Source: Candidatus Nanoarchaeia archaeon (lineage in GTDB: Archaea > Nanobdellota > Nanobdellia > Woesearchaeales > DATDTY01). Taken from it: a stretch of DNA of 64,000 nucleotides. Shown piece after piece: positions 27,115 to 62,509 of this stretch. The translations under genes were made by a program, and so were the position numbers. The notes below the pieces were generated by a model. It was not told the DNA's origin. It did no database searches and was given only the letters and a program-made list of their open reading frames with translations. The stretch is from positions 4,008 to 68,007 of the forward strand of contig DATDTY010000051.1 in assembly GCA_035290625.1 (NCBI GenBank), in the 5' to 3' direction. How positions within the stretch are numbered: position 1 is the stretch's first letter; each line of letters begins with the position of its first letter.

Positions 27115-27215
27115 GGCTTCGGTGAAAATCAGTGCTGCCGCCTCTTTGCGAGGCTCTTAAGGGATAGTATGAGCTGAGTTGAGGGGGTTGCCCCATACGG
27201 GGCTTCACCGAAGCC
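27115..27215 (-). mobile_element. Internally deleted (101 bp) copy of the MITE family B element
   Basis: Termini GGCTTCGGTGAA...TTCACCGAAGCC (12-bp TIR). Its reverse complement matches the 3' third of the 60306-60510 copy (gaagccccgtatggg..caaccccctcaactcag..gagcctcgcaaagaggcggcagcactgattttcacc). Confidence 0.6.
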
Positions 27216-37013: not shown

Positions 37014-37292
37014 CTCTGTAGAAAATCTCGTTTTGCTCGGGCAGCATCAGGTTCGCCTCGCATAGCCTTAAGTTCAAAGCGACATATCCCCGCAACCTTT
37101 TTCCGCTCGCTACGCTTGCGCAAAAAGCTTGACCAGAAAAGAGTGGGTTACTGCGTAACCCACAAAGGGCGGTTCGGAGGGCTTCATGCCCTCCTTAAGC
37201 ACTTTTGGTCGAACTTTTGGTAAAAGGTCGTGGGACACCCCCCTTGTCGCTGCTAACTTCTTTGTTTCCAAGGCTCACATAGGATGCTGCCC

Positions 37293-37937
37293 TTATTTTC
37301 CACAGAGCCCGTTCGGATAGGATTGATAGAATTCTGAGCAGAGCTTTATCGCAAGGCTGCTCTCCCTGGACTGGAGGCACAAAAGCCTGAGATTCCTGAG
37401 CAATGCGATTCTCTGGACAAAATAGATCAGTTCCCGCCGTGTCAGGCCTGCTCCGCCAGCAACTCTCTCATGGATGAAGACAGCAGCATGAGCATACTTG
37501 TTTGTGGCAGCAAGGATATTGTCTGAAACCTCCTGCACCCCTTCAACAGAAATCTCTTTCATCGCATAATTCTTAAGCCTGTTTTCCCTGAAGAAATTGT
37601 ATCCGAGGAGGTCATAGGAATGGCTGCCAGCATACACAACTGCCTCCTTCTGGATCCCTCCCTGTTTTATTGCCTGGAGGAGGCAGGGGAACAAGGACTC
37701 CTTTGCTGCAAGGTTGGAGTCAAACACAATCACAGCGCAATTCCCAAGGCCTGCGCAGAGATCAAGGATTTCTGCAATGCTGTCATCGTCTCCCAGAAGC
37801 ACAGCACAACGACGGCCTGAGGCAAGTTCCTGGCTGATGTGATCGCTGTTGAGATCCTCGATTTCCAGGGAAACAGAACAGCCTGATTCGTTGAGTATCG
37901 TTTTTGCAGGCAGAGGATTCTCAGTAAAGATTTTCAT
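37293..37937 (-). CDS. Hypothetical protein (214 aa)
   Basis: Intact ORF. The C-terminal codons run into the structured G-rich intergenic repeat. No family assigned. Confidence 0.35.
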   Translation of the reverse strand: MKIFTENPLPAKTILNESGCSVSLEIEDLNSDHISQELASGRRCAVLLGDDDSIAEILDLCAGLGNCAVIVFDSNLAAKESLFPCLLQAIKQGGIQKEAVVYAGSHSYDLLGYNFFRENRLKNYAMKEISVEGVQEVSDNILAATNKYAHAAVFIHERVAGGAGLTRRELIYFVQRIALLRNLRLLCLQSRESSLAIKLCSEFYQSYPNGLCGK

Positions 37938-44925: not shown

Positions 44926-46053
44926 TTAAAAATGTTTTGAACAGAAGGGCTCAGGTGAAAGCCGAATCTGGATGAGGGGGGCTTCCTGCTTATATCTCTT
45001 ATAGAGGTTTGTTATTCTTCTCGACCTCTCTTTAATGATTTGCGAAGAAAGCTGCATCAGAGTTGCTGCTTTTGTCCCTGGCCTTGAGGAAAAGGTTGAG
45101 ATATTGAGCACTTCCGGTCTGATTTCCTTGATGAGGCTGCACGTTTCCTGGAAATCCTCCTCGGTCTCTGTGGGATATCCAACAATGACGTCGGTTGCAA
45201 CAGTAATGCCTGGAAATTCTGACCTGAATTTTTTCACAGCCTCCCTAAAGCTCTCCACAGTATGGATCCTCTTCATGTCCCGCAGCACTTTTTCTGAGCC
45301 TGACTGCACGGGGATATGGAGGAACTTCATTATTTTTTCTGACCGGTATGCTTCCAGCAATGGTTCCGCAATTCTCCGCAAATGCCATGGATTCATCATG
45401 CCTACTCGGATCTTGTAGTCTCCCTCAACAGTTACCAGCTCGTTGAGCAGCTCAGGCAATGAAGTGTTTATATCAAAACCGTAGCATCCATTGTCCTGGG
45501 AAGTGATGTAGATGGCTGCGCGGCCTTGTCTCACCGCAATTTCAAGTTCCCGCTTAATGTCTCCGATCCTATAGCTCTGCAGCATGCCCCTTGCCAGCTT
45601 TGTTGCGCAGAATGCGCAGGTGTTGAGGCAGCCTTGGGATGTTTGGATGATTGCAATGCCGTTTTTCTTTCTGAGTGCCGGCACGTTGATCCTTTCTTCC
45701 TTTTTGCCTGAAAAAACATCATGAGGATTTTCAACAATGTCATTGATTTTTAGTATTGAATTAGTGTCAAAGACAGCAGAGAGGTCAGGTATTTTTTTCC
45801 GGAGATTGAGCGTTTTGGTGAGGCATCCGCCGATGATTATTTTTTTGGGTTTTTCATTTTTTAAGTGGGTATTGAGATAATTCAATATCTTTGACTGGGT
45901 TGCGTTCTTGACTGAGCATGAGTTTACGATAATGGCATCTGCATCAGATTCGTTGGCAACAAGGGTATGGTTATTGGCTTTAAGAAGGCCTGCCATCTGC
46001 TCGGAATCTGCAATGTTTGCCTGGCAGCCATACGTTTTGATGAAGATGTTCAT
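44926..46053 (-). CDS. Radical-SAM methylthiotransferase (MiaB/MtaB-like)
   Basis: MTTase N-domain KTYGCQAN, the radical SAM motif CLNTCAFCATK and a C-terminal TRAM-like region. Confidence 0.8.
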   Translation of the reverse strand: MNIFIKTYGCQANIADSEQMAGLLKANNHTLVANESDADAIIVNSCSVKNATQSKILNYLNTHLKNEKPKKIIIGGCLTKTLNLRKKIPDLSAVFDTNSILKINDIVENPHDVFSGKKEERINVPALRKKNGIAIIQTSQGCLNTCAFCATKLARGMLQSYRIGDIKRELEIAVRQGRAAIYITSQDNGCYGFDINTSLPELLNELVTVEGDYKIRVGMMNPWHLRRIAEPLLEAYRSEKIMKFLHIPVQSGSEKVLRDMKRIHTVESFREAVKKFRSEFPGITVATDVIVGYPTETEEDFQETCSLIKEIRPEVLNISTFSSRPGTKAATLMQLSSQIIKERSRRITNLYKRYKQEAPLIQIRLSPEPFCSKHF

Positions 46054-48761: not shown

Positions 48762-48835
48762 GGGCCAATAGCTCAACCTGGTAGAGTGCCGCATTGGCTA
48801 TGCGGAGGTTTCGGGTTCGAATCCCGATTGGTCCA
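48762..48835 (+). tRNA. tRNA-Ala (anticodon GGC)
   Basis: Acceptor GGGCCAA/TTGGTCC has the G3:U70 Ala identity pair, with discriminator A. D-arm GCTC-AACCTGGTA-GAGT. Anticodon stem CCGCA/TGCGG, loop TTGGCTA. T-arm TCGGG-TTCGAAT-CCCGA. No encoded CCA. Confidence 0.7.
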
Positions 48836-48839
48836 TACC

Positions 48840-49044
48840 GGCTGCGGTGAAAATCTCGCGGTGGCTTGCGAGTGAGCTCGTTCTCACTCGCTCACCAGCC
48901 ACCGGCTGCCGCCAAGTTCGCAATTTGCGTTCTTTGTCCTCATAATCGACATTCGTCCCCGATGGGGCATCCCCCTCGAAGTCGATGCCCTGATTCCAGT
49001 TGTGCTGCTCACAAAGGGCGGCAGCATTGATTTTCACCGCAGCC
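48840..49044 (+). mobile_element. MITE-like non-coding element, family B (205 bp, perfect 16-bp TIR GGCTGCGGTGAAAATC)
   Basis: Termini ggctgcggtgaaaatc...gattttcaccgcagcc. An internal 9-bp-stem hairpin gcgagtgag-ctcgtt-ctcactcgc. A second full copy lies at 60306-60510 and a deleted copy at 27115-27215. It sits 4 bp after tRNA-Ala and 3 bp before the ATG of the HD gene. Confidence 0.7.
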
Positions 49045-49047
49045 TCC

Positions 49048-50076
49048 ATGACCGCAACAGTTAAAAAACATGGAAGAATCCCTTTTTTAATGGATCCGCT
49101 GCTTATTGAAGACCCAGTCTACGGAAAAAAGGAATTGCGGAATGAAACCGTTCTTGCCATTATCAAAACCCCTGAATTCCAGAGGCTGAAGGGCATCAAC
49201 CAGTACGGAACCGGGAACTATATGACCCCCAAGATGCCTACTACGAGGTATGAGCACAGCATTGGGGTGTATCTGCTCCTGCAGAAACTCGGGGCATCCT
49301 TCGAGGAGCAGATTGCAGGGCTACTGCATGACATCAGCCATACAGCTTTCTCCCATGTCGTTGATTTCCTGAGGAATGAGAGTATGAAGCAGGACTTCCA
49401 TGAGCTGCATTTGAAACGGGTTCTGGAGAGTTCAGAGATCAAGGAGATTCTGGGAAAAGAGGGATTCCGCATCGACAGGATTACTGATCATTCCGGATAC
49501 AGCCTCCTGGATTCGGATGACCAGAGCCTGAATGCAGACCGGCTTGACTATGGGATGCGGGACGGGCTGTTGTTCGGCACCTTTCGGAAGGATAGGATTG
49601 ATAAGGTCCTAGGTTCTCTCTTGGTTAAGGATGGGCAGATTGTGCTGGCAGATGAGGAAGCTGCTTCTGCCGCTGCATGGGGCTATTTTCACACCTCAAC
49701 GCAGTTCTGGAGCAATCCGCTGTTCGGAGGAAGCTATATGGCTTTGGTTGCTGCTTTGAGGGCAGCGCTGGATAAAGGAGTTATCAGGGAAGAGGACCTT
49801 TTTGGGACTGATGAGGAAGTGATGGGGAAGCTGAAGGCTTCAGAGGATGCCAGGATCATGCATTATCTCGGTTTCATAGACTGGGTCAACCTTAGCGAGC
49901 AGGAACACGGAGAGTTTATGATCAAGACCAAGGCAAGGTATATTGACCCGCTTTTTTGGAAGAAGGGCAAGCTCATCAGGTATTCAGAGGCTGACGAGGT
50001 GTTTAAGGAAAGGGTTGAGGCCTGGGTAAGGGAGATGAAAAACGGCCATCGGGTCGGCATAAATACAAAACTTTAA
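49048..50076 (+). CDS. HD-domain phosphohydrolase
   Basis: YEHSIGVY...LLHDISHTAFSH (H...HD...H metal ligands), DRLDYGMRD. The start is MTATVKK immediately after the MITE; the ORF-track start at 49000 lies inside the MITE. Confidence 0.7.
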   Translation: MTATVKKHGRIPFLMDPLLIEDPVYGKKELRNETVLAIIKTPEFQRLKGINQYGTGNYMTPKMPTTRYEHSIGVYLLLQKLGASFEEQIAGLLHDISHTAFSHVVDFLRNESMKQDFHELHLKRVLESSEIKEILGKEGFRIDRITDHSGYSLLDSDDQSLNADRLDYGMRDGLLFGTFRKDRIDKVLGSLLVKDGQIVLADEEAASAAAWGYFHTSTQFWSNPLFGGSYMALVAALRAALDKGVIREEDLFGTDEEVMGKLKASEDARIMHYLGFIDWVNLSEQEHGEFMIKTKARYIDPLFWKKGKLIRYSEADEVFKERVEAWVREMKNGHRVGINTKL

Positions 50077-51159: not shown

Positions 51160-51312
51160 TGCCGCTGTAGCTCAGCCTGGTTAGAGCGCTACATGCTTGT
51201 TTTCGCAAGTCAGCGAGGCTCATATGTTTGAGCGATGATCCGAAAGGAGATGACATACTCAGGCGATAACTGGGTGACGTAGAGGTCAGGGGCTCAAATC
51301 CCCTCAGCGGCA
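51160..51312 (+). tRNA. Intron-containing tRNA (about 153 nt; roughly 78-nt insertion in the anticodon region; anticodon unresolved, CUU/Lys possible)
   Basis: Acceptor GCCGCTG/CAGCGGC with discriminator A. Canonical D-arm TAGCTCAGCCTGGTTAGAGCG (A14, G18G19, A21). T-arm AGGGG-CTCAAAT-CCCCT with C48, G53:C61. Between position 26 and CGTAG (39-43) lies a structured insert containing the CTTG-TTTTCG-CAAG hairpin. A31/C39 would mispair if the intron sits at 37/38. Confidence 0.6.
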
Positions 51313-51429
51313 TTTCAGCTCATCAAACGAAACGTGGATGAATTCAGGGTTTTGGATGTTCGGTTCTTTCGTGATGATCTCAGAGGTCACCGATTTGACT
51401 TCAACCTTTTATTGGAGGGCTACTGCAAC

Positions 51430-51672
51430 TGGCTCTGTAGAAAGTCCGGCATCAGTTCTGCGAGCTTCTTCGGCCACATAAGCAGTGCTGACGGAGGGTT
51501 GCCCCAATCAAAACGCCGTCTGGCGTTTTGGTGTGCCAAAAGAGCGTAGCTCTTTTTAGCACCTTCGGGGGTGTCAGCATGCACCGATAGAGTCACAAGC
51601 GAGCCGGCGGCTAGCGAGCAAGCTCACCTTGCTCGCTTGCAAGCCACTGCCGACTGACTTTCTACAGAGCCA
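51430..51672 (+). mobile_element. MITE-like non-coding element, family A (243 bp, 17-bp TIR TGGCTCTGTAGAAAGTC)
   Basis: Termini tggctctgtagaaagtc...gactttctacagagcca. About 90% identical across its length to 61356-61602, including the hairpins caaaacgcc-gtct-ggcgttttg and gcgagcaag-ctcacc-ttgctcgc. No ORF of likely significance. Confidence 0.65.
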
Positions 51673-51746
51673 CTACGACCATTCACGTATAGAATGAATG
51701 CGTCGGCCGGTAGTGAGACTTTGGTCTCGGACCGGCCTAACATGAA

Positions 51747-51829
51747 TGCGTCGGCCGGGATTTGAACCCGGATCAACGGCTTTCTCCGATCCATGGAAGG
51801 CCGCAATCATGCCATTAGACCACCGACGC
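51747..51829 (-). tRNA. tRNA-Gly (anticodon UCC) with 12-nt intron at canonical 37/38 position
   Basis: Minus-strand read GCGTCGG-TG-GTCT-AATGGCA-TGAT-T-GCGGC-CTTCCA[TGGATCGGAGAA]A-GCCGT-TGAT-CCGGG-TTCAAAT-CCCGG-CCGACGC-A. Canonical T-arm, U33, A37, anticodon TCC. The 13:22 pair is mismatched. Confidence 0.55.
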
Positions 51830-51928
51830 ATACTCTCAATTGTTCTGGCATTGTTTATAAAGATTATGATGACGGAATCGCATCCATGCTCCACAAACTT
51901 TTTAAACACTCAAACATTCCTTCAGATC

Positions 51929-52477
51929 ATGACTTGGAAGATTCTTTCAGACACGCCCGACCTCAAGCTGTTGGAAAAAAAGAAGGGAGACCTGAACATC
52001 CGCATCGAGGCAAGGCTCACACGAGAGAAGAAGTGGGACATCTACAAGATTTACGTTGGGAAATCCATGCCGAACCTTGTTGAGGAATACCATGCGCAGA
52101 CAGGCAGCGAGGCAGAGCAGCTTATCAGCTCACTAAAGAAGAAAGAGCTCACGCTGGAGCAGATCAGGGAGATGCAGAAGACACAGATTGTTCTGCGCCG
52201 GGAGTTCAATGAGGTCAATGTCGAGAAATGGGTTGTTTCAGTCAGCCGGCTACCTGCCGGAGCAGTCTTCGTACGCTACTATGATCCCATCACGGTGGAC
52301 ATCATCCTGGATGAGCGCTACGCCTCTATCGAGTCCTCAATCCTCAGGGAAGCTTATACCACCCTTGGCATCGAAGATGAAGGAAAAGACCAGACAATCT
52401 ATTACTATACACGGAAGTCAAGAGCCGAGAAGAAGCCCACGATTGTCGGGAAGATAGAGTTTGGCATCGCGCGTTAG
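51929..52477 (+). CDS. Hypothetical protein (182 aa)
   Basis: The ORF-track start at 51746 overlaps the tRNA-Gly gene. An internal Met (MTWKILS), downstream of a TATA-like tttataaa at 51855, is preferred. No motif recognised. Confidence 0.4.
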   Translation: MTWKILSDTPDLKLLEKKKGDLNIRIEARLTREKKWDIYKIYVGKSMPNLVEEYHAQTGSEAEQLISSLKKKELTLEQIREMQKTQIVLRREFNEVNVEKWVVSVSRLPAGAVFVRYYDPITVDIILDERYASIESSILREAYTTLGIEDEGKDQTIYYYTRKSRAEKKPTIVGKIEFGIAR

Positions 52478-53505
52478 ATCTGCCCGCGAATTCTTCGGAT
52501 GAATTCATCGAAGTTGTGCGTCTTCACCACAGCACCGCACGCATGCTCATGGCCGCCTCCATAGCCCTCAAGGCCAGCCAGGCTTTGCTGCACAAGAGGA
52601 GGCAGGAGCAGTGCCGCAGAGCGGAGCGAGCACTTCATCTCCCCTGATTTTTCTCTGCAGACAATGATTGTCTTTTCAGGGAACCTATGGAGCAGCTCAT
52701 TGCTCAGGTCAGAGGTGAGTGAGATGGTGTCATCAGTGTAGCTGAAAAGGAGCAGGGGATCCTGCTTTTTTGCTGCAGCACAGCCGGATTTCAGAAGGCT
52801 CTGGTACTCCCTATTGACCTCTTTGAATCGCTTGGTGAGGTACTTTGCCTGGGGAGTTTTCTGCTCAACAAGCTCGCGGATATCGCCAACACGCGTCAGA
52901 ATCTTCACGCAGCCCATCGCTACCCTCGTGTCTCCCTTGAGGATAAAGGAGAAGAGCCTCACAATCTCTCCGAGAGGGGTCTCAAACAGGCCAACCTGCG
53001 GATCGGTTATCCCAGGAGGAAGCAGTTCAGGATACTGCCTTGAGAATGCGTCATAAATGTCCTTTTTGTACACCCAGTCAGCCACAACGCCAACTGCGGC
53101 AATCCATAAATCGCTCTCCACAATCTGATGGCAAAGATAGGATGTTGGAACATTCGCCTCCTTCCGGAGCCGGGGGTTGAAATACATAACCCCTTTCCTT
53201 TCCTGCGGCTCATGATGGTCAATCCATACGATCTTCCGGTTCGCCTGATCAATGAATTCCTGCGACACCTTTGGCTTGTCAAGGACAAAGATAACGTCAG
53301 GGTTGTAGTCCTCAACCTTTCTGACAAACTGCTCTCTCAGCTCAGGCAGGGATTTCACCACAACGCCATGGCCTTTCTTGGCATACCTGTAGAGCAGCAG
53401 AAATGAGCACAATCCATCAGGATCGTCATCGAAAAAGAAGAGAGGGTTCCTGGAAGAGTCCAAAAGCTTCCGGATTTCCTTGACCTCCTTTTGTGTAAGC
53501 CCCAT
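52474..53505 (-). CDS. DHH-family phosphoesterase (archaeal RecJ/NrnA-like)
   Basis: DHH motif IWIDHHEP, DHHA1-like GGGHEHACG at the C-terminus, and N-terminal FFFDDDPDGLCS (motif I). Confidence 0.75.
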   Translation of the reverse strand: MGLTQKEVKEIRKLLDSSRNPLFFFDDDPDGLCSFLLLYRYAKKGHGVVVKSLPELREQFVRKVEDYNPDVIFVLDKPKVSQEFIDQANRKIVWIDHHEPQERKGVMYFNPRLRKEANVPTSYLCHQIVESDLWIAAVGVVADWVYKKDIYDAFSRQYPELLPPGITDPQVGLFETPLGEIVRLFSFILKGDTRVAMGCVKILTRVGDIRELVEQKTPQAKYLTKRFKEVNREYQSLLKSGCAAAKKQDPLLLFSYTDDTISLTSDLSNELLHRFPEKTIIVCREKSGEMKCSLRSAALLLPPLVQQSLAGLEGYGGGHEHACGAVVKTHNFDEFIRRIRGQI

Positions 53506-53681
53506 AGGATAGCGAGAAAGAGCGTGCTTTATATGGATTGCGGATAAAAGAATGCGCGCCGTTAAATAATTTGAGAGTATGAGAACAAGGGCCGGTTTAA
53601 TATTATTTTAGGGTTCAGCGTTTTTTTGTTATTAACTATTAGATAGTAACGTTTATATAATTACCCGGTTCTTGGCAGGAT

Positions 53682-54890
53682 ATGGACTATTATTTGCAGG
53701 ATATATCGAGATTAGAAGGACAGCCCAAAAGAACAATCGCAGATTATGCGGAGCAGAATGGGATTTTGGTTCCTCGCAGATTTGATTCTTTGGCAGAAGC
53801 CAGAAGGTCTCATAAAGGCATTTTTCTAAGGAGCGAACACCCTCAAGAGTATAATGGGATTTCTGGCTTGTTAAATAGTTTCAGCCTGTCTTCATTAACT
53901 TTTCCAGTTAGAGGTTCTCGGAGCTTAGAAGAGGTTAAACAAAGATATTTTACGCAGGGAGAAATGCAGCCAGATGCGTATAAAGAATATTGTAAACAGC
54001 TAGGATTAAGTGAAGATGAATTCATAAAACAAGCCTCTTTTTCAATATGGGAAAAATTGGGCGGATTAAACAGGACCGTAATTGCCGATTCCTCGATTGC
54101 TGGCAGGTATCACATTATGAGTCTTTGTTATGAGAAAAATAACAAGCTGACTAATTATGCCATTGTAGAGGAAGGAAGATTAGCACATGAGTTTATCAAA
54201 CCTCTTCCAGATGAGTTGAGGGGTGGTTTAGGAGCTCTAATAGAAACCTATGAGCAGGTAAGAAATTTAGGAAGATTTGACCCTAATAATTGCCCAATAA
54301 TGGAATTTCGAACGCATAACGGCAAGAATTATTTTCTTCAGTACCATAGAACAAGAGATTTTTCACCAGCAGGATTTATGTTAGATAGAGGTCTAGAGGA
54401 TGGGGAAATTGAAGTGCCATGGGTGCGTGGAGCAACATCGAAAGAGGGAGGGGCGTTTAAGATTACGGTTTATTATGCAGGAGGAAAGTTTGATCCTGAA
54501 GATGAAGACGGCTCTTTTGATTTGCACTGGAATTGGATTTTTTCAGAGCTGCAATTCAAGAGAAGGAGATTACAAAGTATAGACAGCACGGTAGACGGCG
54601 GAAGCTTTGCAAATTTGGTTGGAAATCATGAGCATAGGTCAAAAATGTTCAAACCTGAGATTTCTGCAGTTTTTCCAATTGAATCGGTAATGAGGGACAA
54701 TGAAGTTTTGTGGGGAAACGAAAATTGGGATCTTGGCGACGGCAAGAAATATTCCCCAAGAGACCCAATTCTCAAAGATGGTGAAACTATTTTTAGTTTT
54801 GGGGAAGAAACAAAGAAAGGACACAATTCATATATGAATCTTCATTTTGTTTCTGATGGAAGAAGGGCGTTTGTAAGGAGGATAGGATAA
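53682..54890 (+). CDS. Hypothetical protein (402 aa), low-GC gene
   Basis: Intact ORF with markedly AT-richer codon usage than flanking genes. No recognisable motif. Confidence 0.45.
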   Translation: MDYYLQDISRLEGQPKRTIADYAEQNGILVPRRFDSLAEARRSHKGIFLRSEHPQEYNGISGLLNSFSLSSLTFPVRGSRSLEEVKQRYFTQGEMQPDAYKEYCKQLGLSEDEFIKQASFSIWEKLGGLNRTVIADSSIAGRYHIMSLCYEKNNKLTNYAIVEEGRLAHEFIKPLPDELRGGLGALIETYEQVRNLGRFDPNNCPIMEFRTHNGKNYFLQYHRTRDFSPAGFMLDRGLEDGEIEVPWVRGATSKEGGAFKITVYYAGGKFDPEDEDGSFDLHWNWIFSELQFKRRRLQSIDSTVDGGSFANLVGNHEHRSKMFKPEISAVFPIESVMRDNEVLWGNENWDLGDGKKYSPRDPILKDGETIFSFGEETKKGHNSYMNLHFVSDGRRAFVRRIG

Positions 54891-55056
54891 TCGAGCCACA
54901 AAGTTGCAGGTCAGGAAGTTTACGATAAGCTGCAATCTCAGAGAGGGATCAAGTATCCTCCAAGCCTTGGGTAAATCTCCAAATCCAAAAAAAACCGAAA
55001 GCCTTATAAATATAATATTCATTAGCAATTACAGGGATTCTGAAGGTTTCAAGAAG

Positions 55057-55704
55057 ATGGATGAAAACGAAGCTCACATGTTGAAGACAGGAACAACAAC
55101 AGTCGGTATTCTCTGCAAAGACGGTGTTGTGCTGGCAGCAGACCGCAGGGCCACGTCAGGCTATCTTGTCTCAAGCAAGAGGATCGACAAGGTCCACCAG
55201 CTTACAGAGAACTTAGTGGTCACCATGGCAGGAACAGCCTCAGACGCGCAGCTTCTTGTCAAGATAACCCAGGTCGAGCTCAAGCTCCGCAAGATACGGA
55301 TAGGAAGGGAAACCACAGGAAAAGAGGCGGCAAATTTCATTTCACGGATGGTATATTCAAATATCCGCAAGATGAGCATTATTCCGGGAATCAGCCATTT
55401 TATTCTCGGCGCAAAGGACGAGTCAGGGTTCTCGATATGGGATCTCTATGCAGACGGCTCAATCACCCAGGTTGATGATTATATCTCCTCAGGATCAGGA
55501 AGCGTGATGGCGTTTGGTGTCCTTGAGACGCTCTACAGGAAAGATATGGGCATAGACGAAGGGATTAAGCTTGCGGTGAAGTGCATCAACGCAGCAATCC
55601 AGCGGGACATCGCCTCTGGGAATGGCATCGACATTGTCACCATCACGAAAGACGGCGTTAAGAAGGCCCTCCAAGAGGAGATTGATATGCACATTAAGGT
55701 ATAA
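55057..55704 (+). CDS. psmB: Proteasome subunit beta (with short propeptide)
   Basis: MDENEAHMLKTG-TTTVGI, with Thr1 after the propeptide, and GSG...DG family motifs. The ORF-track start at 54904 is an upstream extension. Confidence 0.85.
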   Translation: MDENEAHMLKTGTTTVGILCKDGVVLAADRRATSGYLVSSKRIDKVHQLTENLVVTMAGTASDAQLLVKITQVELKLRKIRIGRETTGKEAANFISRMVYSNIRKMSIIPGISHFILGAKDESGFSIWDLYADGSITQVDDYISSGSGSVMAFGVLETLYRKDMGIDEGIKLAVKCINAAIQRDIASGNGIDIVTITKDGVKKALQEEIDMHIKV

Positions 55705-55728
55705 ATCATTCTGGAACCAGGTTATTCA

Positions 55729-57630
55729 ATGGCAGAAATCATAAAGGAGATTCTCAAGCATCTCCCCGATGGCAAGATTAGCTCCGCAGAATTCGAGGGA
55801 GCGAACATTGTCCTCTACACCAAAGACAAGGAGTTCTTCTTAGATAATAATGGCGTGATTAAGAAGATTGTGAATGATATCAAGAAGCGGGTTGAGCTCC
55901 GGCCAGACCCCAGCATCGCCATGGACCAGGAGCAGGCAGAACAGGAGATCCGAAAGAGCATCCCCAAGGAGGCCGGAGTCGGCAGCATCATTTTTGATCC
56001 CCAGCGGAGCATCGTTATTGTTGAGACTGAGAAGCCTGGCCTCGCCATCGGGAAGCAGGGCAGCATCCTGAGGGAGATAAGGGAAAAGACAATGTGGATA
56101 CCCTTAATCAGGAGGACTCCTGCGATTAAATCCCAGCTCATTGAGAATATCAGGGCGGTCCTCTACCAGAACTCAGACTATAGGAGAAAATTCCTTGACA
56201 GGATCGGCCATAGAGTCTATGATGGATGGATGCGCGGAAAAAAACAGGAATGGGTGCGCTTTTCAACGCTGGGCGCAGGCCGCCAGGTTGGCAGGTCATG
56301 CTTTCTGCTCCAGACGCCTGAATCCCGGATTATGATCGATTGCGGCATCGATCCTGCAAAGGAGTACGGATCAGAGGAAGCCTATCCTCATCTCGAAGCG
56401 CCTGAGTTCAAATTAGATGAGATTGATGCGATTATCATCAGCCATGCCCACTTGGACCATTGCGGCCTTTTGCCCTACCTCTTCAAGCTTGGCTACAAAG
56501 GCCCGGTATACTGCACTCCCCCCACAAGGGATATCATGGCCTTGCTGCAGCTCGATATGGTCAAAATTGCAAAGAACGATGGCAAGGACCCCTTATTCAC
56601 CTCAGAAGAGATTAAGGAGATGGTCAAGCATACGATTACTGTAGAGTTTGATGAAGTGACAGATATCACGCCAGATGTGCGCCTGACACTCTATAACTCG
56701 GGCCACATCCTGGGAAGCGCAATGGTCCATCTCCATATCGGCAATGGGCTTCACAACTTCCTCTACACAGGCGACATGAAGTATGGCCACACGGATCTCC
56801 TTGACCCTGCGGTTACAATTTTCCCCCGCCTGGAAACCCTCATGATCGAATCAACCTATGGAGGGAAAGACAATATTCCTGCCAGCAAGGAACAGTCAGA
56901 TGAGGAGCTGGTCACAATCATCAAGAGCACAATTGGCCAGGGAGGAAAACTTCTGATCCCTGTCTTGGGTGTGGGAAGGGCGCAGGAGGTGCTCCTGATT
57001 ATCGAACGGCTTGTTCGGGAAGGCCAGCTCGAGAAGATTCCAGTCTATGTGGACGGCATGGTCTGGGACGTAACTGCGATTCACACTGCCTATCCTGAAT
57101 ATCTCAATAACAACATCAGAAAGCTTATCTTCCATAAGGATGCCAATCCGTTCCTGGCAGAAATCTTCCATAGGGTGGGATCGCAGAAGGAGAGGGCACA
57201 GGTGATTGAAGAGCAGGGAGCATGCGTCATCCTTGCAACCTCAGGTATGCTCACCGGCGGCCCATCAGTGGAATACTTGAGGAGGCTGGGGGACAACCCA
57301 AAGAACGCTTTGGTGTTTGTCTCGTATCAGGGAGAGGGCTCTCTCGGCAGGCGCATCCAGAGAGGCGAGCGCGAGATCGTCTTCTCAAACGGAATGAAGA
57401 AAGAGATCCTGCCTGTAAGGCTAAGCATCTACACCATTGAAGGGTTCTCAGGCCATTCCAACAGGAGGGAGCTCATGAACTTCATCTATAAGTGCACGCC
57501 CAGGCCAAAGAAGATCCTGGTGAACCATGGTGAGGCAAGCAGATGCCTTGACTTGGCAAGCTCTATCCACAAGCAATACCGTGTTGAGACCGCTGCTCCG
57601 AAGAATCTGGAGATTATCAGGCTGAAGTAA
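55729..57630 (+). CDS. aCPSF1 (KH-KH plus metallo-beta-lactamase/beta-CASP RNase)
   Basis: Two N-terminal KH-like segments, then HAHLDHCG (HxHxDH), the beta-CASP region and a C-terminal RMBL motif HGE. 633 aa. Confidence 0.85.
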   Translation: MAEIIKEILKHLPDGKISSAEFEGANIVLYTKDKEFFLDNNGVIKKIVNDIKKRVELRPDPSIAMDQEQAEQEIRKSIPKEAGVGSIIFDPQRSIVIVETEKPGLAIGKQGSILREIREKTMWIPLIRRTPAIKSQLIENIRAVLYQNSDYRRKFLDRIGHRVYDGWMRGKKQEWVRFSTLGAGRQVGRSCFLLQTPESRIMIDCGIDPAKEYGSEEAYPHLEAPEFKLDEIDAIIISHAHLDHCGLLPYLFKLGYKGPVYCTPPTRDIMALLQLDMVKIAKNDGKDPLFTSEEIKEMVKHTITVEFDEVTDITPDVRLTLYNSGHILGSAMVHLHIGNGLHNFLYTGDMKYGHTDLLDPAVTIFPRLETLMIESTYGGKDNIPASKEQSDEELVTIIKSTIGQGGKLLIPVLGVGRAQEVLLIIERLVREGQLEKIPVYVDGMVWDVTAIHTAYPEYLNNNIRKLIFHKDANPFLAEIFHRVGSQKERAQVIEEQGACVILATSGMLTGGPSVEYLRRLGDNPKNALVFVSYQGEGSLGRRIQRGEREIVFSNGMKKEILPVRLSIYTIEGFSGHSNRRELMNFIYKCTPRPKKILVNHGEASRCLDLASSIHKQYRVETAAPKNLEIIRLK

Positions 57631-57671
57631 GAGTATACACCAAATAAGGTCTGATTTTTTCTTTCAAAATT

Positions 57672-59033
57672 TCACTTTCTCATCATAAAAAGCTTCAGCA
57701 CGAGAAGCCCGGCAGCTGTAAGAATGACGAGATTTGCAAGGATAAGAAGAGCCACCTTAATGCCAGGGCTAATGCTAGAGATTTCCTCAGCTGCTGGCTC
57801 TGCAGGCTCTAGAGGTTCTCCGGGCTCTGGGAAGAGTTCTTCTTCAGGTTGTGCCTCAGGCTGTTCAGGTTCAGCCACTGGCTGCACCTCTGGCGCTGCA
57901 GGCGCGCACATCACCTCAAGGAACACACGCCCCAGGTTTGACAGCTGGTCAGTATCATAATAAGATCTGACCTCAATGTTGTGATTGCCAGCAGGAGCAT
58001 TGGCAGGCAGGGCAATCCTCCGCGTGATATGGCTGGAATAATCCTCAGTTTCAGGATCATCAAGGTATATCGGCCCCTCACTGAGCACGATCCCCAAGGC
58101 CGGATTTTGGATTGTGTAGGCTGCGCTCTCCTCCTCTCCCTGGCCGTAATTCAATAAATCAAAGCTAAGGGTTACAGATTCTCCGCATGAGGCTTTGACA
58201 GGATCGATCTGCAGATTCTGGACAAGGATATCATGATTCTCCCTGCGTATATCAAGTTCAAGCTCGAGTTCAGCAGAGTGGATCCTCCCATTCTCATCCT
58301 CGCCTTCTGCCTCAATATGCACAACATAGGTATCTTCATCAATAAGGCCTGGAAGCGTGAACCTGAAGGTTTCAAGCCTGGTCCTGTCTGCAGGAAGCTC
58401 AAAGGTGTTGGACTCCTTTTCCAAGTCCTCTCCATCATTGATACCCTCAAGTCTGACAGTGATGAATGCGTCCTCCAGCTTCGTCTTTTCAATAGTTGTA
58501 AAAGTGTTCTTGACCCGAACATCAAAGGTTATCGTTGAGCCCGGCTTTGCAGTCTTCGGGATCGCTGTTGCATTCTGCAGGTCTTTGTTTTCCTCATTGT
58601 CGATCGTAACATCCAGATCATCAAGAATGAGCCTTCCGATGATCGTGGCTTTAAGGGCGAATGTTGAGCTTATTTGAGTGCCGTCTGTCTGGTTTGCTGT
58701 TACGATGACATTTCCCAGCGTCCTTGGGCCCTGCACCTGGCTGAACGGAATTGTTGCATTTACAGCTATTGTTGCAGAAGCTCCTGCAGCCAATGAGCTG
58801 AGATTTGCCGGGCTGAAAGTAACGGAAAAAGGAGCATCACTCGATAAGGAAAGATTCACAAGCTGCTGATCCCCGGAATTCCGAATCTCGAATTGGGCTG
58901 ACCCTGTCGTATTAATCCCGATAGCCCCAAAATTCACCTCAGAAGGAACAGCAAGCTGCCCTGCTGCGCTAACCATACCTGCAAGCAAGACAAACCAAAG
59001 CAGGTGCATAAGGTGCTTCATGAGGCTAACCAC
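57672..59033 (-). CDS. Cell-surface protein with signal peptide, low-complexity PE-rich linker and C-terminal TM anchor
   Basis: N-terminal hydrophobic signal, Ig-like repetitive body, PEQPEAQPEEELFPEPGEPLEPAEP linker, then SPGIKVALLILANLVILTAAGLLVLKLFMMRK (PGF-CTERM-like anchor with PGI). Confidence 0.5.
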   Translation of the reverse strand: MVSLMKHLMHLLWFVLLAGMVSAAGQLAVPSEVNFGAIGINTTGSAQFEIRNSGDQQLVNLSLSSDAPFSVTFSPANLSSLAAGASATIAVNATIPFSQVQGPRTLGNVIVTANQTDGTQISSTFALKATIIGRLILDDLDVTIDNEENKDLQNATAIPKTAKPGSTITFDVRVKNTFTTIEKTKLEDAFITVRLEGINDGEDLEKESNTFELPADRTRLETFRFTLPGLIDEDTYVVHIEAEGEDENGRIHSAELELELDIRRENHDILVQNLQIDPVKASCGESVTLSFDLLNYGQGEEESAAYTIQNPALGIVLSEGPIYLDDPETEDYSSHITRRIALPANAPAGNHNIEVRSYYDTDQLSNLGRVFLEVMCAPAAPEVQPVAEPEQPEAQPEEELFPEPGEPLEPAEPAAEEISSISPGIKVALLILANLVILTAAGLLVLKLFMMRK

Positions 59034-59081
59034 AGAGGAGAGATGTGCCTATTTTTATTTAAATGTATCGGTGAATCTGCA

Positions 59082-60260
59082 TCAAAATCGGGGCTGCAGA
59101 CTTGCCAGGCTCTCCCTCAACTCAGAGTGCTTCAGGCCGTAGACCTGAAGAGGGATATGATGCAGATGGCTGTCTAAAGCCTGCCTGCACGCCATTGCCC
59201 CTTTTCTGACACCATGGCTATGGCCGGAAACAGCATCTGTAAACTGGATCACGAGGTCATTGCCAAGCCTCTGAACAAGACCGGGGATGTGAGAAGCTCC
59301 TACCCTGCAAGCAAGGCCCATGGAGCTCTTAACCCCGTGCCAGGGCTTGGCAAGGCTGCGTTCCTCAATAAGCCTCTTGTCAATCACGTCATGGACATGG
59401 ACAGAAGCATCAGCATTCATTGGTCCCGGCAGGGAGCCGATATGAACGATGTCTGCTCCCGCCAGCCTGCAGAGTTTTGCGCAGGCATGCGAGGACATAT
59501 GGGGCATCCTGACGCTTCGCTGCAGCTGGATAGCAACGGGAACATCAGCCTCACGAAGGTTCTGGAGTGAAGAAAAACCTGAAAGGTTGAGTACAACTGC
59601 CTCACAGCCAAGAGTATGGGCAAAATCTGCCCTCTTCACTGTCTCCGAACCCGTCACATTTGGCATATACATCTTATGCCCTCCGTTCAGCTGCTCAGCT
59701 TTTTTCTTTCTCCGATGCGTCTGAAAGACGCGTTCCTTGAAACGATTCGATGGAAGGTTTGTGAGGGAAGGGGCATCAGCAACGATATCCATCCCTGTCC
59801 ATGCCTCATAGGCATTCATGGAAAACTCATACGAAGACCCCTGCAGCAATGAAGCCTCAAGCAGGGCCTGGTTGGTCCCAATCAGTTTTCGGATTCCCTT
59901 CACGCCAAATCTTGGGCCCGGAAAGGATTTCACTAAAGTCCGCGGAAATTGCATATCAAGAAGCGTTGCCCTCTTTACAGAAGGAAGCTGCAGATGGCCA
60001 GTAAGGCTATGGCTGATCTGATCTGCGTTCCCCGGCTCAAAGAGATCAGCAGGATAGCGTATCAACGCAACCTGTCCCCCCTTGTCAAGGGATACCACCG
60101 CGGGAGCGTCTCCTCTAACAAATGCCTCCGGAGATACGCCAATGCTTGCAGCAGCAACATGCCTGCAGGCATCCTGGAATGAAACTGCCTGAGCAGGCTC
60201 GATTGCATACTCGGCAATGACGTCAGACTTGCTGAAACGTGTTGACAGGAACTGGAACAT
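59082..60260 (-). CDS. RuBisCO large-subunit-like protein (RLP) with substituted carbamylation-site lysine
   Basis: C-terminal blocks MPHMSSHACAKLCRLAGADIVHIG, WHGVKSSMGLACRVGASHIPGLV and QFTDAVSGHSHG parallel the RuBisCO H294/R295, H327/K334 and GGG loops. The segment aligning to GGLDFTKDDE reads GMDIVADAPS, so K201 and E204 appear replaced. Confidence 0.65.
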   Translation of the reverse strand: MFQFLSTRFSKSDVIAEYAIEPAQAVSFQDACRHVAAASIGVSPEAFVRGDAPAVVSLDKGGQVALIRYPADLFEPGNADQISHSLTGHLQLPSVKRATLLDMQFPRTLVKSFPGPRFGVKGIRKLIGTNQALLEASLLQGSSYEFSMNAYEAWTGMDIVADAPSLTNLPSNRFKERVFQTHRRKKKAEQLNGGHKMYMPNVTGSETVKRADFAHTLGCEAVVLNLSGFSSLQNLREADVPVAIQLQRSVRMPHMSSHACAKLCRLAGADIVHIGSLPGPMNADASVHVHDVIDKRLIEERSLAKPWHGVKSSMGLACRVGASHIPGLVQRLGNDLVIQFTDAVSGHSHGVRKGAMACRQALDSHLHHIPLQVYGLKHSELRESLASLQPRF

Positions 60261-60305
60261 GCATCCACTGATGCTGAGACGCTATTTAAAGGTTTTGGAA
60301 GCCGG

Positions 60306-60510
60306 GGCTGCGGTGAAAATCTTGCTTCGCAGCTGCCGCCAGTACTCAAAAATGCTGTTCATTTTTGGTCGCTCCTGCGGAGCATCTCGGCTTGTGTCGC
60401 CCTTCTGTATGCATCGTTGAAGCCCCGTATGGGACAACCCCCTCAACTCAGTCTATGGCAATCCTCAAGAGCCTCGCAAAGAGGCGGCAGCACTGATTTT
60501 CACCGCAGCC
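60306..60510 (+). mobile_element. MITE-like non-coding element, family B (205 bp, perfect 16-bp TIR GGCTGCGGTGAAAATC)
   Basis: Same termini and length as 48840-49044. The internal sequence is only partly shared (ggctgccgcc and gcagcac tgattttcaccgcagcc ends). Intergenic between two minus-strand genes. Confidence 0.7.
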
Positions 60511-60528
60511 AGAAGCAAGAGACAGGAG

Positions 60529-61314
60529 TCATCTGCTGTATTTATCATGCCGGTATTCTGATATCAGATAAAACGCAGTTATTGTGTATATCCAAAAGAA
60601 GAGGTACGGCAGAACATAGATCCGGAATCCGAAGATCGAAAGAGGAAAAAGGTACTTCTGAAAAAAGTAGGGCATGATCAAAAGCTCGGGAAGGATAATC
60701 CAGGTGGATGCGAACCCAGTAACCCTGATGACCCGGGTAAACTTTACATGCAGCCTCATCAGCTTTGCAAGGAAGTATCCAAGAAGGATAGACACTGCCC
60801 ACACCATCGTGTATTTTATCGAATACCCTATAAAAAGGACGAACAGCAGCACAGGAAGGCTTGCCAGAAAGCCTACGCTTAGGATGTCCTTAAGAAACTC
60901 TCTTTTTTCCAGCAAATCCCCGAAAGATGACCATTTGTAATTCTTCGTAGCAAAGAAAGAATGCACTGCAAAGCCGTCAGCGTCTGCAAACACAAACTCA
61001 GAGGTCCTGTTAACCTTGCCTTCAGTGTCGATCGTGATATAAGGGTTTCCCGAAGGGATGAGGATGGGAGAGGTGGTCTCCATCTTCACAGTCAGATTGA
61101 GCACAGAGAATTTTGACAGCGCCTCATCAACACGCGACGCAGATTGGGTATACGCCGGGGCAGCAATAAGCAGGGAGAGGAACAGGGAGAAAAATATCAG
61201 AGAATAGAAATAGGCAATCACATACCTCTTCTTCCGCGAAGCGATAATCTTATAGTGATGGGGGCTTAAGGTCTCGATAATTGTCTTGAAGAAATGGATA
61301 TAATGGTCAAACAT
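60529..61314 (-). CDS. Hypothetical integral membrane protein (261 aa)
   Basis: Several hydrophobic helices. No motif recognised. Confidence 0.4.
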   Translation of the reverse strand: MFDHYIHFFKTIIETLSPHHYKIIASRKKRYVIAYFYSLIFFSLFLSLLIAAPAYTQSASRVDEALSKFSVLNLTVKMETTSPILIPSGNPYITIDTEGKVNRTSEFVFADADGFAVHSFFATKNYKWSSFGDLLEKREFLKDILSVGFLASLPVLLFVLFIGYSIKYTMVWAVSILLGYFLAKLMRLHVKFTRVIRVTGFASTWIILPELLIMPYFFQKYLFPLSIFGFRIYVLPYLFFWIYTITAFYLISEYRHDKYSR

Positions 61315-61355
61315 AGAGTTCCCAAGGGACGAGAAGTATAAAAAGGTTACTCAGA

Positions 61356-61602
61356 TGGGGCTCAGCAGAAAGTCCGGTATCCCTTCTGCGAGCTTCTTCG
61401 CAGTCATAACCGCCGCTGACAGAGGGTTGCCCCAATCAAAACGCCCTCTGGCGTTTTGGTGTGCCAAAAGAGCGTAGCTCTTTTTAGCACCTTCGGGGGT
61501 GTCAGCAATCGCAGGGGCAAGCGCAAGCGAGCCGGTGGCTAGCGAGCAAGCTCGCCTTGCTCGCTTGCAAGCCACTGCCGATTGACTTTCTACTGAGCCC
61601 CA
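61356..61602 (+). mobile_element. MITE-like non-coding element, family A (247 bp, 18-19 bp TIR TGGGGCTCAGCAGAAAGTC)
   Basis: Termini tggggctcagcagaaagtc...gactttctactgagcccca (1 mismatch). A near-identical copy lies at 51430-51672. Confidence 0.65.
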
Positions 61603-61738
61603 ATGCCGAATAGTGTAGTATGCAGGCTCTCCAGCAGTAAGACACAACCACACCTGCTCTTGGTACAATGAGTATAATGATTACTATATAGTGGTTAAAA
61701 TAACAAGATTTAAATAGGGATTTGGGCTCCACAGCAGT

Positions 61739-62509
61739 ATGAGCAGTGTAAGTCGCATAGGCGCGCATCCTGCATACGGCTACCAGCCGTACAGCCGCAG
61801 CAATGGGTATAAGCCGTTAGTGCCTCCAATCGCAAAGATCGTGCATGATGCAGCAAGTCTCTACAGCCAGGGCAGAGTCCAAGCTGCTCATCAGGCAATC
61901 AGCCAGATCCCTCTGAAAACCACGCACAATCCGATCTTGCAAGCCATCAGGCTAGAGGCTGAGTCAGTCCAATCAGCACGTGGCAGATTACGCAGCCAGG
62001 AAACACTGGAGGAACTCAGCAGCCACTACAACAGGATTCCAGCCATAGGCCAAGGAGTTGAGCAGGTTGTAAGAGCAGCAATCCCGAACAGGCAGTATCC
62101 GGCCAGAGAGAAAACAGGATATACTCCCCCGGTGGTTCCAACCGAAATCGCGGTTCAGACGCAAGGCCATGGGCTTGAGGCGCAGCTTGCTCTTGGCCAT
62201 GATAGCAGGCTGAGAGGGGCGCTTCCTGTTGATCTCATCGCACGCGGAGCAGCTCACGATTATCTGGACAATAAAGTGCTTAAAGTGATAGAAGAGAACC
62301 AGAAAGGAAAGAAGGCTGCAGCGCAAGCAGATGTGCCAAACCAGATTGTGGATCACGTTATCCACGGCAAGGGCCTTGCCAGCTCCAATCAGATCTATGG
62401 GATTGTAAATGAGATGGTTGCAACTGCTGTTCCGATCTTCGGAAACCACATTGACGTATTGCCCGTAGACAGAAATGCAACGATAGAGCCAACCATAATC
62501 ACCCAGTGA
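61739..62509 (+). CDS. Hypothetical protein (256 aa)
   Basis: GC-rich ORF with Ala/Gln-rich low complexity. Could be non-coding; no motif. Confidence 0.3.
   Translation: MSSVSRIGAHPAYGYQPYSRSNGYKPLVPPIAKIVHDAASLYSQGRVQAAHQAISQIPLKTTHNPILQAIRLEAESVQSARGRLRSQETLEELSSHYNRIPAIGQGVEQVVRAAIPNRQYPAREKTGYTPPVVPTEIAVQTQGHGLEAQLALGHDSRLRGALPVDLIARGAAHDYLDNKVLKVIEENQKGKKAAAQADVPNQIVDHVIHGKGLASSNQIYGIVNEMVATAVPIFGNHIDVLPVDRNATIEPTIITQ

Follow-up and report, generated by a model that had tools for sequence, protein, structure and literature searches.

A 241-bp non-coding MITE family of an uncultured DPANN archaeon and its probable mobilization by an IS5/IS903-like transposase

The window, i.e., the whole 64-kb stretch of DNA that was analysed, belongs to an NCBI MAG named 'Candidatus Nanoarchaeia archaeon'. 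Two copies of a non-coding element, designated family A, were found in it. Copy A (51431-51671, plus strand, 241 bp, ends GGCTCTGTAGAAAGTC and GACTTTCTACAGAGCC) is flanked by convergent tRNA genes (51161-51312(+) and 51747-51829(-)). Copy B (61359-61599, plus strand, 241 bp, ends GGCTCAGCAGAAAGTC and GACTTTCTACTGAGCC) occupies the divergent intergenic region between a DUF1189 gene (60529-61314, -) and a 256-aa gene (61739-62509, +), and its sequence is also present in L013, L019, L020, L022 and L024. The homology of the two segments, put at about 90% in an earlier note on this DNA, is real: the mean column identity is 89% in a MAFFT alignment, and the identity is 88% over 241 nt in the ungapped register. 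Exactly two occurrences of a 49-nt core string were counted in the window, against an expectation of zero.

The true ends of family A, GGCTC...GAGCC, were set by comparison with seven independent copies. The terminal inverted repeat is 16 bp long, GGCTCwGyAGAAAGTC, i.e., GGCTC(A/T)G(T/C)AGAAAGTC; it is perfect in copy A, matches at 15/16 positions in copy B and is 92–96% conserved across the seven copies. The earlier note was right about non-coding copies with terminal inverted repeats, but its sizes were too large, 243–247 bp for the copies (241 bp each) and 17–19 bp for the repeats, the latter because one extra nucleotide in copy A and three in copy B are chance-complementary flanking bases. 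The nested hairpins that it quoted are present in both copies, and the minus-strand ORFs 51624-51806(-) and 61351-61668(-) exist. A Pfam scan of three of the small ORFs overlapping the copies (61351-61668(-), 51334-51549(+) and 51673-51909(-), with 51624-51806(-) left out) gave no match. Family A encodes nothing recognisable.

Six further MITEs of the same superfamily were located in the window, which gives eight in 64 kb, or approximately 125 per Mb and 2.5% of the sequence. The first (1501-1665, 165 bp) has the right end GGCTCTGTCCTAAGTC, which is identical at 17/18 positions to the terminal repeat found in the IS family described below (IS L041 and L045), with the outer 13–14 nt exact. It is flanked by a perfect 9-bp duplication, GATTGGCTG, at 1492-1500 and 1666-1674, and its interior contains motifs like those of families A and C (GGTTGCCGTC..GACGGCAACC, TTCTGCGAGGCTCTT). 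The second (23174-23321, 148 bp, ends GGCTCTGCTGAAA, central motif GAGGAGGGTTGGCTCCTTCGGAGG) has no clear target-site duplication in its flanks. A short family C-type MITE of 101 bp, GGCTTCGGTGAA...TTCACCGAAGCC, lies at 27115-27215 between the flanks CAAAAAAAC and CAAAAACAA. The MITE at 37012-37309 (298 bp, ends (A)GCTCTGTAGAAAATC and GGCTCTGTGGAAAATA) is surrounded by a perfect 9-bp duplication, CGTTCGGAT, at 37003-37011 and 37310-37318; it is situated between two convergent ORFs and overlaps the stop codons of both. Two family C MITEs of 205 bp, both ends of each being GGCTGCGGTGAAAATC, were found at 48840-49044, 5 nt past tRNA-Ala and with near-identical flanks (TCCATACC and TCCATGACC), and at 60306-60510, where the MITE forms one arm of the window inverted repeat I1. 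A pair at 44948-45241 was rejected as another MITE, being located inside a radical-SAM gene and lacking a duplication. For the repeat beside tRNA-Trp, Tandem Repeats Finder found nothing in the window, and only about 1.3 units are present there.

Beyond the window, a metagenome scan and BLAST revealed family A in L008/L016, L009/L015 (two copies), L012/L017 and L026. These copies represent at least four other loci on groundwater metagenome contigs, with flanks unrelated to the window, so that the family is not limited to the two copies which the earlier note would have taken for a simple duplication. In all, at least six distinct flanking contexts are known, and in every copy the homology ends exactly at GGCTC...GAGCC; at the window sites, the unit does not form part of any larger IS, a second possibility raised in that note. 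BLASTN of the element against plasmid and phage collections returned nothing, and viral contigs scanned for the terminal repeat and for the core gave no matches. A junction-pattern scan of species-representative genome contigs yielded five matches, all by chance and in bacteria; the host genome is apparently absent there or the pattern was too strict.

Neither family A copy in the window has a clean target-site duplication. Copy A is bordered by decayed 9-bp sequences, ACTGCAACT (51422-51430) and ACTACGACC (51672-51680), which agree at 6/9 positions. On the right of copy B lies the 9-bp target CCAATGCCG (61600-61608), and the left duplication copy (TCAGATGG, approximately 61351-61358) is degenerate. 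In contrast to these two copies, duplications, which the earlier note had proposed to look for, are perfect at three family A copies elsewhere: GAATCCAAG (L015a), ATAAAAACC (L017/L012) and GATTGGCGG (L016a/L008a). Four sister MITEs also have perfect 9-bp duplications, namely CGTTCGGAT and GATTGGCTG for the window MITEs at 37012 and 1501, TCAATGCCG in L027 and TTGTTTTAG in L016b. All the clean duplications are of 9 bp, and none is of 8 bp.

The orthologous site of copy A is empty in the diverged strain L038, where a single ACTATAACC corresponds to ACTGCAACT, the element and ACTACGACC in the window. The flanks of this site in L038 are 89–96% identical to those in the window, and the window without the element and one 9-mer aligns with L038 across the junction free of gaps. 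The 9-bp target of copy B is TCAATGCCG in L026; in the strain L027, a different MITE has been inserted in this same target, and TCAATGCCG is perfectly duplicated around it. Family A is bounded by 16-bp repeats, occurs at no fewer than six unrelated sites with 9-bp duplications and is missing where a related strain has the orthologous site. The unrelated loci, the duplications and the empty site in L038 support its reading as a non-autonomous transposable element (MITE), which the earlier note had put forward.

No transposase was detected among 42 ORFs of the window scanned with Pfam, and tblastn of the IS transposase against the window gave no match. Likewise, the IS903 transposase had no phmmer match in the six-frame translation of the window and L001–L038 (the IS-bearing L040–L049 were left out). 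It took a Pfam scan of ORFs on MITE-bearing contigs to reveal the DPANN transposase. An intact IS of 904 bp is located on the contig L015 (971-1874) and encodes a 271-aa DDE_Tnp_1 transposase (PF01609, E 9e-12, 45.5 bits versus a 23-bit cut-off). It adjoins the family A copy L015a, with only the duplication of that copy between them. The earlier note had envisaged an autonomous partner, and this element, with its DDE transposase and with ends related, not identical, to those of family A, provides a candidate.

Based on NCBIfam, the best model for the L015 transposase is NF033579 (IS5_2, E 1.5e-35), which is also the best model for that of IS903. The score on NF033579 is 123.1 bits, under the curated cut-off of 140; the protein is a distant relative and not a curated member. 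BLASTP aligned it colinearly with the IS903 transposase (E 7e-6, 20% identity), and the motifs DSTG, AD(G/K)(A/G)Y and Y-2-R-3-E-6-K coincide. More than 1000 homologues were found, one of them named 'transposase [Nanoarchaeota archaeon]'. The IS belongs to a family of approximately 885–905 bp with the left inverted repeat GGCTCTGTCCTrAATCTC and the right inverted repeat (IRR) GGCTCTGTCCyrAAAGTCTG. Relatives with perfect 9-bp duplications occur in L041/L043 (GATTTTAAC) and L046 (TAGAAATGT), and in L021 the IS is physically linked to genes of the window.

Based on the above results, we suggest that family A is very likely a MITE: it spans 241 bp, has no coding content and is a DNA transposon of the non-autonomous type. 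Its host is an uncultured DPANN archaeon, and the enzyme that moves it is probably an IS5/IS903-like transposase whose gene lies elsewhere in the same population. The protein acting on family A in trans would be an IS5-family DDE transposase related to that of IS903, and the likely source is the 885–905-bp IS family, which is abundant in DPANN metagenomes and also produces 9-bp duplications. After binding to the two ends, the transposase would make its cuts and place the element into staggered nicks 9 bp apart, and gap repair after insertion would create the 9-bp duplication. An IS of this type that lost its transposase gene most likely gave rise to family A, the ends of which resemble the IRR.

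It is unlikely, in our estimation, that the MITE is moved by another transposase family with 8–9-bp duplications and GG ends (IS1, IS4/IS10, ISL3 or IS6-like) instead of the IS5/IS903-like IS. This alternative draws on the ends themselves. The L015 IS end GGCTCTGTCCyrAAAGTC is related to those of family A but differs by a 2-nt indel and one substitution (GTCCyrAAAGTC versus GT-AGAAAGTC). This mismatch could block the recognition of family A by an L015-type transposase, and no IS with ends identical to those of family A was found on the sequences examined. The ends of ISL3 are GGCTCTT, which also speaks for another family. Furthermore, the same population harbours an IS6-like element with an 8-bp duplication (L038), an IS with the ends GGTTAAGTCAAC and a second DDE_Tnp_1 IS with the ends CGAGTGTGGTTA, the last two with 9-bp duplications. 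However, the IS5-like IS is the only one with GGCTCTGT... ends, and the window MITE at 1501-1665 combines a nearly unchanged IS5-like end with the interior motifs of families A and C. The uniform 9-bp length of the clean duplications also argues against a family producing 8 bp. The IS6-like element of L038 was rejected as a partner owing to its unrelated ends and 8-bp duplication, and a search for the GGTTAAGTCAAC-ended IS with a 29-aa C-terminal fragment gave no candidate.

Both strands of both copies fold far better than shuffled sequences (z from -7.5 to -9.3). The best-conserved parts of family A are the terminal repeats and a core with 94.5% mean pairwise identity among the copies versus 62–79% for the arms. 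This 85-nt core forms a three-way junction in copy A (51494-51578, +) and recurs in copy B (61422-61506, +); its hairpins CAAAACGCC/GGCGTTTTG and AAAAGAGC/GCTCTTTT are enclosed by GTGC/GCAC. The core was also found, with 94% identity, inside an otherwise unalignable family C-type MITE (L016b/L008b). A covariance model of the core detected no copies beyond the known ones in 223 kb of sequence, and cmsearch gave one weak match (15.5 bits) in one IS leader, the other ISs being without it. Alignments of the MITE core with the IS leader are short and local (z 0.4–5). The leader that precedes the IS transposase start codon is rich in hairpins and may be the ancestor of the two-hairpin core, although this link is weak. 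It is also conceivable, if rather improbable, that the core is a functional module itself and not passive filler: it could be a leader-derived RNA/DNA structure binding the transposase or a host factor, or a two-way oligo-T terminator, which MITE families would have exchanged and which would have been dispersed across a DPANN genome of about 1 Mb.

The stable folds bring up another reading, an alternative already named in the earlier note, according to which the 241-nt units are dispersed genes for a structured non-coding RNA, transcribed and folded, with the terminal repeats kept by compensation as a closing helix. The terminal helix retains its pairing through two double changes (winA, T/A; L015b, C/G), changes in the core sit in loops and junctions and leave the stems unbroken, and a deletion in L015b swaps two hairpins for a simple GCCCC-CTC-GGGGG hairpin with pairing preserved. 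Nevertheless, of the 71 pairs, only 2 show compensation; these belong to the terminal repeats, where three other changes are uncompensated. The RNAalifold covariation term is positive, i.e., unfavourable (+5.35), in a set of seven copies too similar to each other for a firm judgement. When the whole window was compared with Rfam at the gathering score, tRNAs were the only matches; for copy A, a search at E<=10 found no family, only chance miRNA-type matches of at most 17 bits. Both strands fold equally well, as DNA palindromes should, and the strong fold follows from the terminal repeats and internal palindromes, so that RNA function is not required. An RNA gene would not be expected to have IS-like ends, to be flanked by 9-bp duplications or to leave an empty site, and we consider this reading very unlikely. 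A plain segmental duplication within the genome, without mobility, might be suggested by the window, with its two copies and neither having a clean duplication, but it is refuted by the exact ends of all copies, the six or more flanking contexts, the perfect duplications elsewhere and the empty site, and its probability is negligible.

Read as a MITE, family A is a clear case of an element type already known, and an ordinary one; the knowledge of the MITE mechanism is unchanged by it, and a Woesearchaeal genome dense in MITEs has already been published (PMC11602168). The 85-nt two-hairpin core, shared with an otherwise unrelated MITE backbone, is mildly unusual. DPANN genomes are very small, yet this 64-kb window holds eight MITEs of one superfamily. 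The population bears several signs of recent activity, namely insertion polymorphism, repeated use of the same 9-bp target and hybrid copies, and the hybrid copies suggest recombination between MITEs. The system consists of an IS and its MITE derivatives, for which the ends and the duplication length are defined, and offers a tangible example, open to checking, of how active transposition shapes the structure of a reduced genome at the level of strains. It is also of practical use, since the repeats are the places where assemblies of metagenomes from this lineage stop (L006, L013 and L021–L028 end at or inside them).

BOX, ERIC and Correia elements are intergenic and highly structured, and their variants gain or lose internal hairpin modules. 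Family A shares these general features with them, being intergenic, structured and modular. BOX and ERIC are not known to have 9-bp duplications or a candidate IS partner, in contrast to family A. Like the prokaryotic MITEs of a 2024 census that also covered DPANN genomes (PMC11602168), family A is short, non-coding, intergenic and multi-copy, with terminal inverted repeats and a target-site duplication; at 241 bp, it exceeds the median length of 104 bp in that census, and its interior is modular. The highest densities among archaea in that census were 105 MITEs per Mb in a Woesearchaea genome and 146 in Ca. Altiarchaeum (PMC11602168).

The 9-bp target-site duplication is a feature in common with IS903 and the IS5 family (IS903 group), which together with MITEs derived from IS5-family elements come closest to the present system, and 9-bp direct repeats were reported for IS903B (PMC10513040). 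The GGCT start and A-rich inner part are common to the ends of IS903 (GGCTTTGTTGAATAAATC, verified in L039), the candidate IS (GGCTCTGTCCTGAAAGTC) and the MITE (GGCTCAGTAGAAAGTC). The candidate transposase resembles that of IS903 in its DDE_Tnp_1 domain, the aligned DDE and Y-2-R-3-E-6-K motifs and the shared best model NF033579, but differs in having 20% protein identity and a score below the curated cut-off of this model. Its nearest annotated relatives are archaeal IS5-family transposases of haloarchaeal and Methanomethylovorans plasmids (25–30% identity); the Methanomethylovorans relative was examined for terminal repeats and showed no clear ends. Unlike IS903, with its 1057 bp, the candidate IS is only about 885–905 bp long, and its host is an archaeon of the DPANN group.

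The two homologous segments are assigned with high confidence to a family of MITEs, family A. The earlier note had described them as units of 243–247 bp, about 90% identical, with 17–19-bp terminal inverted repeats. The homology was borne out by a MAFFT alignment (89% column identity), while the lengths had to be corrected: the repeat finder gave 241-bp copies at 51431–51671 (copy A) and 61359–61599 (copy B), 88% identical in ungapped register. Comparison with other copies likewise set the element boundaries at GGCTC...GAGCC, 241 bp apart (end form GGCTCAGTAGAAAGTC), so the terminal inverted repeats exist but were overestimated, as 1–3 flanking bases pair by chance. A 49-nt string of the core, the two-hairpin central part of the element, occurs exactly twice in the window against none expected. 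Small ORFs exist over the copies, neither of which the earlier note credited with a believable ORF; none of the three scanned gave a Pfam match. Copy A is flanked by two convergent tRNA genes and copy B by two divergent protein genes.

The search for further copies proposed in the earlier note revealed relatives at other genomic sites in metagenome contigs. A 19-mer from the core matched 12 metagenomic loci, and real relatives were present in 7 of them; their similarity to the window was confined to the element, and they therefore represent separate genomic sites. The genome_contigs scan returned chance matches only. Target-site duplications were also found: junction reading gave perfect 9-bp direct repeats at three family A copies outside the window, namely GAATCCAAG at L015a (also in L009), ATAAAAACC at L017/L012 and GATTGGCGG at L016a/L008a. 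L015b, which retains a duplication remnant of 6–7 bp, is an older copy. There are also family A variants devoid of whole internal hairpins. The right-hand hairpin is missing from L016a and L017, GCCCC-CTC-GGGGG replaces both core hairpins in L015b, and L008a has one further deletion.

Contigs with the neighbours of copy A were retrieved. The strain represented by L038 is 89–96% identical to the window in the copy A flanks and lacks the element, reading ...GAAGGACT/ACTATAACC/ATTCAC..., where the window reads ...GGAGGGCT/ACTGCAACT/element/ACTACGACC/ATTCAC.... Once the element and one 9-mer are removed from the window, the junction aligns gap-free with L038; copy A therefore inserted long ago, and its 9-bp duplication has since drifted. 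L038 also carries an IS6-like IS (487–1425; 251-aa DDE_Tnp_IS240 protein, ends GACATTGTTTAATTAA, 8-bp duplication CAGAATAC) upstream of a HAD hydrolase gene, where the window has an HD-domain gene.

The copy B region was identical to the window in five other assemblies. In L027 (33–198, compared with window 61351–61608), the copy B position is occupied by a 166-bp MITE of family C, a sister type of the same superfamily. This MITE has the ends GGCTCCGGTGAAAATC and is flanked by perfect 9-bp direct repeats, TCAATGCCG; the right flank of copy B in the window is CCAATGCCG. A family A copy in L026 has the same right flank as copy B and an unrelated left flank. The use of one 9-bp target (TCAATGCCG) by family C in L027 and by family A in the window and L026 points to a hot spot for insertion or to replacement. 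Near-identical targets were found in two other insertions, GATTGGCGG (L016a) and GATTGGCTG (window 1492–1500). Immediately left of copy B (window 61350–61358), L006 (1–139), L013 (1–97) and L024 differ in the presence of another IS, whose ends are GGTTAAGTCAAC and whose 9-bp duplication is CTCAGATGG. The window lacks this IS, contigs break inside it, and its C-terminal reading frame runs out within the right terminal repeat; the joined end fragments matched nothing when searched.

Paired ends were then sought in the window with GGCTCnGnnGAAAnTC, two mismatches being allowed. Eight superfamily elements, including the two family A copies, make up about 1.6 kb of the 64 kb. The others are located at 1501–1665 (duplication GATTGGCTG), 37012–37309 (duplication CGTTCGGAT), 23174–23321, 27115–27215, 48840–49044 and 60306–60510. 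Interior motifs recur among the elements, namely a GGTTGCCGnC/GnCGGCAACC stem, TTTGCGAGGCTCTT and, in the centre, a GAGGGTTGCCCC...GGGG hairpin. A further pair of ends, at 44948–45241, falls within a radical-SAM gene and was rejected as a chance match. The 298-bp MITE (37003–37318 with duplications) lies between the convergent ORFs 35826–37013 (plus strand, thioredoxin-like protein) and 37293–37937 (minus strand) and overlaps both stop codons, so that both frames terminate within the element. The family C MITE at 48840–49044 (region 48836–49053) begins 5 nt past the 3′ end of tRNA-Ala (48762–48835), and its right end extends over the annotated start of an HD-domain ORF (49000–50076); in other assemblies this gene encodes 328 aa and starts downstream of the MITE.

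The window itself is archaeal, encoding FtsZ, aCPSF1/FttA, a proteasome beta subunit, form III RuBisCO and GluRS, and its tRNAs include intron-bearing ones; the related contigs originate from groundwater metagenomes. Exact sequence matches assign it to a 'Candidatus Nanoarchaeia archaeon' MAG, and its RuBisCO is additionally recorded for an 'uncultured DPANN archaeon'. Inserts occur in three of the four window tRNA genes (51161–51312, 16397–16490 and 51747–51829). In one, 86 nt with GATGAT/GATGAC box-C-like words are inserted into the anticodon loop; in another, which ARAGORN calls undetermined, the insert of 24 nt lies in the D region; tRNA-Trp has a 14-nt intron. A repeated unit of roughly 48 nt adjoins tRNA-Trp at its 3′ end (window 51694–51760; also L030, L031 and L033). 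It opens with a copy of the 3′ acceptor end of this tRNA (TGAATGCGTCGGCCGG) and continues with TAGTGAGACTTTGGTCTCGGACCGGCCTAACA; the window has about 1.3 copies and L033 three, with fewer in L031. The array may have arisen by slippage or be what remains of an integration site. The ORFs 7894–9198 and 9308–10621, neighbouring paralogues of about 435 aa, gave only a weak guanylate-kinase domain match.

As for a dispersed structured RNA gene, which the earlier note had offered as an alternative, both copies do contain the hairpins it quoted and fold on either strand with z from -7.5 to -9.3 against dinucleotide shuffles; the element matched no Rfam family, only 2 of the 71 pairs predicted by RNAalifold on seven independent copies showed compensated changes, both within the terminal repeats, and the covariation term was unfavourable. 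Conservation was 92–96% in the terminal repeats, 94.5% in the 85-nt core and 62–79% in the arms. The conserved terminal repeats fit a transposon, for which conservation of the core is less expected. The core also occurs, at 94% identity over 72 nt, within the L016b/L008b MITE (L016:880–1120 and L008:3070–3310, both minus strand). This MITE has a backbone of the family C type, different ends and a separate 9-bp duplication TTGTTTTAG, and outside the core it cannot be aligned with family A, which implies that modules are exchanged between MITE families. Searched over 223 kb, a covariance model built from the core brought up no other contexts and weakly matched the hairpin-rich leader of one IS (15.5 bits), and local alignments of the core with IS leaders were short (z 0.4–5). 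Since this is a single low-scoring match with short alignments, it gives only a hint that the core may descend from an IS leader.

Two hybrid family A MITEs, both from sample ERZ4903137, were found. The hybrid at L029:4330–4570 is copy A-like and then L015a-like, with the left flank of copy A and the right flank of L015a, and that at L021:150–390 is L015a-like and then copy B-like, with the left flank of IS/L015a and the right flank of copy B. Either recombination between MITEs has rearranged the genome or the hybrids are chimeras of the assembly. The identity tracts that contain the crossovers measure 57 and 90 nt and so fall short of the k-mer of 141 that the contig names imply for the assembly, which makes real recombination plausible.

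A scan of 42 ORFs of the window revealed no transposase, and the ORF scan of MITE-bearing contigs yielded two DDE_Tnp_1 proteins, both on L015. A candidate autonomous partner is a 904-bp IS (L015:971–1874; ends GGCTCTGTCCTGAATCTC and GGCTCTGTCCCGAAAGTCTG, related but not identical to those of family A) with a 271-aa DDE_Tnp_1 transposase (L015:1070–1885), which adjoins the MITE copy L015a with only the duplication of the latter in between. The single contig L021 carries window genes together with both this IS and the MITE. IS relatives of 885–888 bp on L041/L043 and L046 share these ends, and each is flanked by a perfect 9-bp duplication (GATTTTAAC and TAGAAATGT, respectively). In this IS family (L015:1070–1885, L041:1501–2316), the transposase frame crosses the right terminal repeat and stops 8–11 nt beyond the element; therefore, the last residues depend on the insertion site. 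The second DDE_Tnp_1 IS of L015 (9893–10866; 314-aa protein, ends CGAGTGTGGTTA, perfect 9-bp duplication GGGCTATAC) lies near a Phage_integrase-family gene (7913–8767).

The 271-aa transposase has more than 1000 homologues, most of them on contigs of about 1 kb and one named a Nanoarchaeota transposase, and its closest annotated relatives are archaeal IS5-family transposases (25–30% identity). Its best NCBIfam model was NF033579 (IS5_2), with 123 bits, under the 140-bit cut-off, compared with 353 bits for IS903. In BLASTP it was colinear with the IS903 transposase (E 7e-6, 20% identity), and both Asp motifs and Y-2-R-3-E-6-K were aligned. The IS903 ends GGCTTTGTTGAATAAATC were verified, and 9-bp repeats are documented for this element (PMC10513040). 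One substitution and a 2-nt indel separate the family A end GGCTCTGT-A-GAAAGTC from the IS right end GGCTCTGT-CCy-rAAAGTC, and the window MITE at 1501–1665 keeps the IS end almost intact (17/18). With moderate confidence, an IS5/IS903-like IS family that is common among DPANN archaea is taken as the probable mobiliser and source of family A. A very high MITE density has already been published for a Woesearchaeal genome (PMC11602168), so family A adds to a known class, and the one thing about it that is mildly unusual is that different MITE families have the conserved core module in common.
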